Virus record (IMG/VR): IMGVR_UViG_3300009149_000122
Strand: one strand, 5' to 3'
Origin: a virus
Length of the DNA stretch: 36,434 nt
Part shown: positions 15,505-16,047 of the stretch, one piece after another
How positions within the stretch are numbered: the stretch's first letter is position 1
How the letters are laid out: each line of letters begins with the position of its first letter
Position numbers and translations under genes: made by a program
Notes under the pieces: model-generated
What the model saw: the letters and a program-made list of their open reading frames with translations, nothing else
What the model was told of the DNA's origin: nothing
The model's database searches: none

Positions 15505-16047
15505 ATGGCCAAGACGCCAGAGGGTGTGGTCCTCAACATTGTGGCACCTACCCTTGAGCCTCTTCCCGTTTGGACACAAATTGTTATGCCCACCACGATT
15601 AGCTTTATCACCCAGTCACAGTACGAGTGGATGTCCAATTTCCATCAAGCTCCCTTTATTTACGAGGGAAAAAGTTGGTATACAGTAGAGCACGCCTTCC
15701 AAGCGGCTAAGGTGAACTTCTTTGGGGAGTGGGCAAAAAAGATCCGCGTGGCCGCGACACCAACCGAAGCGAAACATCTTGGGCGTAAGTGTCCACTACG
15801 TAAAGACTGGGAGCTTGTCAAAGTTGACATAATGCGTTCACTAGTGCAAGCTAAGCTCAAAGCACATCCTGAGCTGCAGGATAAATTACTTGCGACTAAG
15901 AACGCTCACATTGAAGAAGACTCTGCCTGGGATAAATTCTGGGGTACTGGAAAAAGTGGTCCCGGTGGAAAAGGTAAAAACATGATGGGAAAGCTCCTTA
16001 TGGAACTCCGCGAAAGCTTGCGGCGACATCGAGCTAAACATGTGTAG
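15505..16047 (+). CDS. NADAR (YbiA/DUF1768) domain ADP-ribose hydrolase-like protein
   Basis: WMSNFHQAPF..YEGKSWYTVEHAFQAAK...ATPTEAKHLGRK...RKDWE...KFWGTGKSG.GKN.MGKLLMELR matches NADAR signature; start uncertain (15505 or 15583). Confidence 0.6.
   Translation: MAKTPEGVVLNIVAPTLEPLPVWTQIVMPTTISFITQSQYEWMSNFHQAPFIYEGKSWYTVEHAFQAAKVNFFGEWAKKIRVAATPTEAKHLGRKCPLRKDWELVKVDIMRSLVQAKLKAHPELQDKLLATKNAHIEEDSAWDKFWGTGKSGPGGKGKNMMGKLLMELRESLRRHRAKHV

Follow-up and report, generated by a model that had tools for sequence, protein, structure and literature searches.

Why would a phage carry an enzyme able to take ADP-ribose off nucleic acid bases? The question is raised by a gene at 15505-16047 in IMG/VR record IMGVR_UViG_3300009149_000122, a single JGI contig of 36,434 bp (hereafter the window, with positions counted on its plus strand), whose product is, by sequence comparison, a NADAR protein. 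An initial annotation had proposed such a protein here and had suggested that it might oppose DarT toxins, be associated with vaults, or regulate the phage's own ADP-ribosyltransferases (ARTs). The reading we favour, with a probability of roughly 0.55, is that of a stand-alone YbiA-type NADAR, an accessory eraser of base-linked ADP-ribose that, by analogy with characterised relatives, would counter an ADP-ribosylating defence of the host.

The NADAR protein and its active site

The coding sequence (15505-16047, plus strand) opens with an ATG, closes with a TAG at 16045-16047, and specifies 180 amino acids (aa); the gene prediction that JGI has made public for this contig yields the identical product (P0001, 100% identity). 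Its match to Pfam PF08719 (NADAR, DUF1768) extends over profile positions 3-163 of 163, with an E-value of 1.9e-32 and a score of 113.2 bits for a gathering cut-off of 35.1 bits. The protein also matches phrog_1017 (E 3.6e-43) and the NCBIfam model TIGR02464 (110.4 bits vs a cut-off of 73.7). Among solved structures, Escherichia coli YbiA (2b3w) was matched along its full length by the single sequence (E 3.7e-28), and a family-profile search gave 1.2e-40 for YbiA and 9.5e-26 for 8bau, with no other solved NADAR chain at E <= 1. These comparisons put the predicted NADAR identity of the product far beyond chance. The coordinates given in the initial annotation were exact, and the Pfam match covers the whole of the domain that it had named.

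The domain proper corresponds to aa 35-173 (Pfam envelope; 15607-16023, plus strand). Comparisons with three orthologues gave values of 0.16-0.22 for the proportion of nonsynonymous differences (pN) and of 0.71-0.80 for that of synonymous differences (pS), and since pN lies well below pS the domain is under purifying selection. Ahead of the NADAR core is an N-terminal extension (aa 1-28; 15505-15588, plus strand), where constraint is weaker (pN 0.43-0.54 vs pS 0.67-0.69). Only the two closest relatives, P0002 and P0005, conserve the extension at the protein level, most homologues (about 150 aa) being without it. It is not basic, with one Lys/Arg and two Asp/Glu. Between 15445 and 15505 there is no in-frame ATG, GTG, or TTG.

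Residue roles were taken from the P. nicotianae NADAR (PnNADAR) as described by Schuller et al. (PMC11543638), using an alignment to structure 8bau. The PnNADAR residues E43, K50, R79, W89, E125, D130, and W133, which contact ADP-ribose or catalyse its hydrolysis (PMC11543638), align to E62, K69, R94, W102, E138, D143, and W146 of the phage protein, so that all the catalytic and ADP-ribose-binding residues are kept. Five of them (E62, K69, E138, D143, and W146) are invariant in an alignment of 15 relatives, and the position of PnNADAR R93 is occupied by K106, as in YbiA. The motif E62-x6-K69 (vEHAFQAAK; 15688-15711, plus strand) was located by alignment to 8bau and 2b3w and has its counterparts in E43/K50 of PnNADAR and E88/K95 of the E. 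coli C7 NADAR; the motif E138-x4-D143-x2-W146 (EDSAWDKFW; 15916-15942, plus strand) aligns to E125/D130/W133 of 8bau. Both are invariant among relatives, and the codons were checked for both. From these residues we predict an intact active site and a catalytically competent NADAR.

The position of PnNADAR E125 is diagnostic of the subfamily: YbiA-type and general NADARs have Glu there, DarG1 has Asp, and the T4-type NADARs of phages have His (PMC11543638, PMC12945103). Here it is Glu138, invariant among the 15 relatives. The scores against TIGR02464 (cut-off 73.7) rank E. coli YbiA at 169.5, the phage protein at 110.4, and AdfN-Bas33 at 66.8 bits, below the cut-off, with no match for T4 gp30.3. 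Because of Glu138 and of a TIGR02464 score above the cut-off, the phage protein is assigned by sequence to the YbiA type, and neither to the DarG1 type nor to the T4 AdfN type.

A probable role in counter-defence and its competitors

The NADAR gene behaves as a dispensable accessory gene, gained and lost independently. It is present in the AT-rich gut phages L006 and L007 and missing from L003, where the MVP-like gene discussed below (MVP, major vault protein) is 99% identical, the flanking genes are 91-98% identical, and the NADAR slot is empty. In L017, whose MVP is 64% identical, the NADAR gene is absent and both its upstream neighbour and the MVP gene are retained. In L098 the entire NADAR block is gone, and the equivalent accessory region carries at 2085-2444 a Pfam match to Acb5, which counters the cyclic oligonucleotide-based antiphage signalling system (anti-CBASS). 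Such a pattern of gain and loss is typical of counter-defence genes. NADARs were found by tblastn in 358 phage records, and the highest identity to any deposited phage homologue compared is 46%. More distant relatives (45-51% identity) are found in early-type arrays of small phage open reading frames (ORFs) together with SSB, ligase, and helicase genes, with no MVP or ART gene nearby. Phage NADARs are already established, AdfN having been characterised, and the present one is a sequence-divergent addition and an expected member of the family. In two other viral contigs (L001 7097-10504 and L002 7121-10510), NADAR is the C-terminal part of a protein of about 1,136 aa that also has mRNA capping enzyme (guanylyltransferase) and mRNA cap guanine-N7 methyltransferase domains. 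This fusion, in what is probably a eukaryotic virus, ties NADAR to guanine and cap chemistry.

If the phage NADAR serves counter-defence, its helical core would bind ADP-ribose via K69, R94, W102, and W146, as in characterised homologues, and E62, K69, and E138 would catalyse the hydrolysis of the N-glycosidic bond between C1'' of the ribose and the exocyclic nitrogen of the base. The substrate would be guanine modified at N2, and possibly cytosine as for other Glu-type NADARs, in DNA or RNA, and the products would be free ADP-ribose and the unmodified base. Presumably expressed during infection, the enzyme would strip the base ADP-ribosylation laid by a host ADP-ribosyltransferase on phage nucleic acid, a role of orphan antitoxin in counter-defence like that of the published AdfN proteins. 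A DarT1-like toxin is one candidate opponent, and other toxins that target guanine or cytosine are further candidates.

This reading builds on what is observed at the locus and on the activities of relatives. At the locus, the protein belongs by sequence to the NADAR family and the YbiA subfamily, keeps the residues of the active site, and is under purifying selection, and its gene lies in a phage genome and is present or absent among related phages. All four NADAR families, including the YbiA proteins of E. coli and Chondromyces crocatus, remove ADP-ribose from guanine (G-ADPr) in DNA and RNA in vitro (PMC11125620, PMC11833690), and Glu-type NADARs also remove it from cytosine (C-ADPr; PMC12945103). 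Orphan phage NADARs (AdfN) of several clades neutralise DarTG1 (PMC11825919), and YarT of Chondromyces, an ART toxin that is not a DarT, has a YbiA-type NADAR as its antitoxin (PMC11125620). A number of arguments nevertheless weigh against this reading. E. coli YbiA, the closest characterised enzyme, failed to relieve the toxicity of DarT1 in cells (PMC11125620), and Johannesman et al. view YbiA-like NADARs as housekeeping proteins, with almost none in phages (PMC11825919). The phage protein lacks the basic N-terminal extension that is the proposed binder of single-stranded DNA (ssDNA) in DarG1, and the curated NCBI model that it matches (TIGR02464) is named for a riboflavin-intermediate N-glycosidase. 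A genome scan for the host gave only a 41%-identical match in a Woesearchaeota (archaeal) metagenome-assembled genome. Because E. coli YbiA gave no rescue from DarT1 and the genome scan pointed to no host, DarT1 as the specific opponent is a guess. The protein is not classed as a component of a defence system, since PADLOC gave only a weak PDC-M42C match and the score against the NCBIfam model DS32_2 ('NADAR family anti-phage protein') was 76.5 for a cut-off of 240. That orphan NADARs of phages act as counter-defence enzymes against toxin-antitoxin systems that ADP-ribosylate DNA is a recent finding, and the present protein adds a clear YbiA-type (Glu-type) case, from an unsequenced phage lineage, to a clade that the AdfN study found nearly phage-free (PMC11825919). 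If it is active against a host toxin, then the YbiA clade too was recruited for conflict, and the protein could be a handle for finding base-ADP-ribosylating defences other than DarT1, including those directed at cytosine.

N-glycosidases of riboflavin intermediates have their precedent in E. coli YbiA and in plant COG3236 domains, and the phage enzyme might similarly destroy reactive intermediates of the riboflavin pathway, or some other N-ribosyl small molecule, as the product of an auxiliary metabolic gene. We regard this as rather unlikely. The score above the cut-off of the 'riboflavin biosynthesis intermediates N-glycosidase' model (TIGR02464, an equivalog-domain model; 110.4 vs 73.7) and the best solved-structure match, YbiA, fit a metabolic role, and some phage homologues adjoin nucleotide or cofactor genes, e.g. 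GTP cyclohydrolase I (L102) or thymidylate synthase (T5-like and Rhizobium phages). However, nucleic acids bearing G-ADPr or C-ADPr are substrates of YbiA too (PMC11125620, PMC12945103), so that the TIGR02464 match cannot discriminate between the activities. Profile scans of the window proteins found no riboflavin-pathway gene, and presence and absence among near-identical phages suit conflict genes better than housekeeping repair. That the marks to be erased are laid by the phage itself is a tentative alternative and, in our judgement, a doubtful one: NADAR would reverse the marks of the phage's own ADP-ribosyltransferase(s), for self-protection or to limit an effector, in parallel to YarT-YbiA. 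The initial annotation had described the gene as next to PARP-fold genes, which holds for the existence of one ART-fold gene (4005-4616, plus strand) in the same window but not for its proximity, as it lies 11 kb off in another gene block, unlike YarT-YbiA pairs, whose two genes adjoin. The AlphaFold2 model of its 203-aa product (predicted local distance difference test, pLDDT, 78.8) has Tpt1/KptA as the top Foldseek match (E 5.6e-4, probability 1.0), followed by matches to the pertussis and cholera toxins and to DarT1 (at TM 0.41). Invariant residues among relatives include YHVT...GL; there is no Pfam, PHROG, NCBIfam, or PADLOC match. The public gene call covers the last 121 aa only, and homologues span 87-92% of the 203-aa ORF. 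On the strength of the model, we take this product to be an ADP-ribosyltransferase-fold protein. If it acts on phosphate ends, like Tpt1/KptA, the linkage that it makes is not reversible by NADARs (PMC11833690), which weakens its pairing with NADAR as writer and eraser. A nearer candidate, of 423 aa (17283-18554, plus strand, in an ORF from 17154), showed no ART fold: a structure search of its model (pLDDT 79.8, helical N-terminal half) gave no significant fold match. Its gene does not occur between NADAR and MVP in L008 and L009, both of which retain NADAR. NADAR also lacks the N-terminal KYxGxxY-type motif that the ART-fold protein shares with other putative effectors. Self-regulation gains, on the other side, from the Chondromyces precedent, where a YbiA-type NADAR is a proven antitoxin of an ART toxin (PMC11125620), from the ARPP-1 gene in the neighbourhood, whose family is named for its association with ADP-ribosylglycohydrolase, and from T4, where the NADAR gene 30.3 (AdfN) is about 3 kb from alt (L015, record coordinates 123454-128765).

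The vault connection made in the initial annotation starts from a real neighbour. An MVP-like gene (18561-21128, minus strand, 855 aa; Pfam MVP_shoulder E 7.8e-25, Vault_3 E 6.2e-07) lies 2.5 kb downstream of NADAR and is convergent with it, and NADAR might then be a vault-associated eraser that removes ADP-ribose from the MVP shell, its cargo, or RNA, mirroring the vault biology of PARP4 and TEP1. The proximity of the two genes is preserved in L008, L009, and L010, and it recurs in the metagenomic loci L048 and L052. In the unrelated AT-rich gut phages L006 and L007, NADAR and a 43%-identical MVP are 4 kb apart, no other flanking gene being common to these phages and the window, and in eukaryotic vaults ADP-ribose is bound at the MVP shoulder (bioRxiv 10.64898/2026.05.01.722283). 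Against this, NADAR is missing from L003 and L017, as described above, and also from L004 and L005, and the closest NADAR relatives outside the phage group have no MVP nearby. We surveyed the MVP neighbourhoods in 80 metagenomic loci (740 kb of flank), of which L016 is the same phage and L017 a close relative, leaving about 78 others; NADAR was near MVP in only two of these (L048 and L052). The neighbourhoods proved very heterogeneous, and clustering of the neighbours revealed no dominant partner gene. Comparative genomics (L003, L004, L005, L017, and the metagenomic loci) thus rejects an obligate MVP-NADAR partnership, and NADAR behaves as an accessory gene gained and lost independently, rather than as an MVP partner. 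The 'vault-associated' label is not supported by the comparison, and we consider a vault-directed function highly improbable.

The MVP-like gene, a speculative ADP-ribose network, and the accessory region

The more unusual biology of the window lies in the neighbours of NADAR: the MVP-like gene, the ARPP-1 pair, and a common N-terminal peptide. The first report of MVPs in phages is bioRxiv 10.1101/2023.11.10.566534. Relatives of the present one occur at 43-76% identity in other viral contigs, and 442 stretches of the metagenome collection encode one. A 'macrodomain-like' cluster near MVP in L095, spotted by eye, was dropped as it had no Pfam match. In the AT-rich gut phages, a DUF2828/DUF7788 gene of the von Willebrand factor A (vWA) type is kept beside MVP (L006 7173-8639), with 48-95% identity across L003-L007, and a metallophosphatase gene is near MVP in L003, L004, and L007 but not in L005; NADAR is variable in L003-L007. 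An Rfam scan of the whole window found tRNAs only, with no Y-RNA or vault-RNA-like family.

Upstream of NADAR, a 712-aa gene (10151-12289, plus strand) has a weak VWA_CoxE match and a DASRS motif resembling the metal-ion-dependent adhesion site (MIDAS), and is followed by the ARPP-1 gene (12255-13328, plus strand). The pair is kept in L008, L096/L097, and L098/L099. A single in-frame TAG (12588-12590) breaks the ARPP-1 frame into two halves, which match profile positions 2-92 and 98-277, whereas relatives have one protein of 341-345 aa. The gene might be a pseudogene, or the TAG might be read through or come from a sequencing error. Rfam gives, at 9257-9321, a weak tRNA-like element (32.2 bits) whose 7-nt loop UUUUAAU would show a UUA anticodon; it is a possible ochre-type suppressor, and any tie between it and the TAG of ARPP-1 is speculative.

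Unrelated accessory proteins of the window share at their N-termini or domain starts a peptide of the form [KR]-[YWHV]-[KRQN]-G-x-x-Y (e.g. KRVRWRGQLYLRM, KLVKYQGYLYQYV, RIIRYQGFVYRLA). It is found in the proteins starting at 267, 2786 (at aa 14 and aa 297), 4005, 17283, and 22675, as well as in L008, L017, L096, and L098, and is conserved in homologues on other contigs. Six strict matches occur in 10,037 aa, a significant excess over the 0.088 that shuffling predicts (at most 2 across 500 shuffles). As speculation, the peptide might direct proteins to the capsid or the MVP shell, as a signal for packaging or targeting. In the equivalent accessory region of L017, which like that of L098 has a further conflict-type gene, a 586-aa protein (4605-6365, minus strand) has the motif twice and a terminal HCxxGxxRS domain resembling dual-specificity phosphatases (weak DSPc match). 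The 423-aa protein mentioned above also has the invariant motifs E-x3-H-A-[TS], GF, AGLGG, G-x-SFT, RYDP, and E-x-RVP, and the position of its gene in the genome varies among related phages. In one of its relatives, P0034, the module is fused to a ParE-like domain and to a weak, sub-threshold PARP-like domain.

One could combine these elements into an ADP-ribose network of the phage, in which NADAR would be a node with the MVP shell, the pair formed by the 712-aa vWA-like protein and ARPP-1, the ART-fold protein, and the KYxGxxY effectors, and would reset the ADP-ribose marks that a transferase of the phage itself has put on nucleic acid or cargo. We hold this to be very unlikely. If true, the network would be a prokaryotic-virus analogue of the vault/PARP4/TEP1 biology, and NADAR not a simple anti-DarT factor.

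The window belongs to a novel tailed phage, with a large terminase gene (27656-29938; phrog_17415 E 3.8e-92), a portal gene (30384-32756; E 2.9e-90), and tRNAs, and a megablast of positions 13000-22000 against 50,697 phage records gave no match. NADAR is one of six tightly packed, co-directional ORFs (14014-16309, plus strand), the others starting at 14014, 14327, 14777, 15129, and 16040. The block is bounded by tRNA-Leu genes at 13898-13981 and 16898-16972 and has upstream a strong terminator-like hairpin at 13358-13385; no promoter-like site was found inside it, though the overall counts of the promoter and terminator scan did not exceed those of shuffles. From gene packing only, the block is likely one transcription unit. 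Its last ORF (16040-16309, plus strand, 89 aa; phrog_13182 E 6.5e-23) has an ATG that overlaps the NADAR stop by 8 nt (ATGTGTAG) and is probably co-translated with NADAR. The ORF is also 3' of NADAR in L008, L009, and L010, and was not found in the NADAR-less relative L017. The same three relatives share a local order of Zn-ribbon-like ORF, NADAR, 89-aa ORF, and convergent MVP-like gene.

The ORFs flanking NADAR encode small proteins without assigned function and an HNH endonuclease. Two HNH endonuclease genes (16334-16897 and 21370-21945, plus strand) bracket the NADAR-MVP region, the first ending exactly at the start of the tRNA-Leu at 16898-16972. The paired HNH genes and the tRNA junction are consistent with a recombination-prone, mosaic accessory region. 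Nine tRNAs were found by ARAGORN (2467-16972), five of them tRNA-Leu with differing anticodons, which makes nine to ten tRNAs once the Rfam result is included; in the one at 8926-8997 the anticodon loop is aberrant, with 6 nt.

Comparison with known NADAR systems

E. coli YbiA is known for the hydrolysis of riboflavin intermediates and for a role in swarming. The phage protein is 42-43% identical to it (2b3w, BLASTP) and has the same E-x6-K and E-x4-D-x2-W motifs and the same diagnostic Glu, and both pass TIGR02464. It differs from YbiA by its extra 28-aa N-terminal extension, by a lower TIGR02464 score (110 vs 170 bits), and by its context, a phage gene as opposed to a chromosomal LexA-controlled operon (rhlE-ybiA-dinG-ybiB).

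There are also parallels with the orphan NADARs of phages. Like AdfN-Bas32 and AdfN-Bas33 of T5-like phages, the protein is phage-encoded, stand-alone, and Glu-type, and lies among small early or accessory genes. Anti-DarT1 activity was demonstrated for AdfN-Bas32, and AdfN-Bas33 is a tested anti-DarTG1 factor (PMC11825919). In sequence, AdfN-Bas33 (97 bits, 41% identity across 143 aa) does not come nearer to the phage protein than bacterial YbiA does, and it falls under the TIGR02464 cut-off (66.8 bits) that the phage protein exceeds. AdfN-T4 (gp30.3) is likewise an orphan phage NADAR and removes ADP-ribose from DNA guanines as counter-defence, but it resembles the phage protein in a short stretch only (34% identity across 38 aa, 27 bits), and T4-type proteins have His in place of the catalytic Glu (PMC11543638, PMC11825919) that is kept here as Glu138. 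The alt gene of T4 encodes a capsid-packaged ADP-ribosyltransferase, a loose parallel to a phage with both an ART and a NADAR. The gene thus resembles AdfN in being phage-encoded with no toxin gene adjacent, as judged from Pfam, NCBIfam, and PADLOC-type profile scans of the window proteins; by sequence, compared with gp30.3 and AdfN-Bas33, it is not a member of the tested AdfN clades (T4-type His and Bas32).

The antitoxins of bacterial systems are further comparators. DarG1 (BC4488 family) belongs to the same superfamily and would share the predicted chemistry, i.e. de-ADP-ribosylation of guanine N2, but it has a catalytic Asp (D171 in E. coli C7), a basic N-terminal extension with a putative ssDNA groove, and a DarT partner, none of which the phage protein has. 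No tested window protein gave a DarT/DUF4433 match or a PADLOC DarT match. The YbiA of C. crocatus is of the same type and serves in conflict rather than housekeeping, which shows that members of the subfamily are able to neutralise a non-DarT ADP-ribosyltransferase (PMC11125620). The genes of YarT and YbiA stand side by side in one operon, whereas profile scans found no ART-family match among the immediate neighbours of the phage NADAR, no HYE or HYD ART toxin gene being adjacent, and its only ART-fold gene is 11 kb off.

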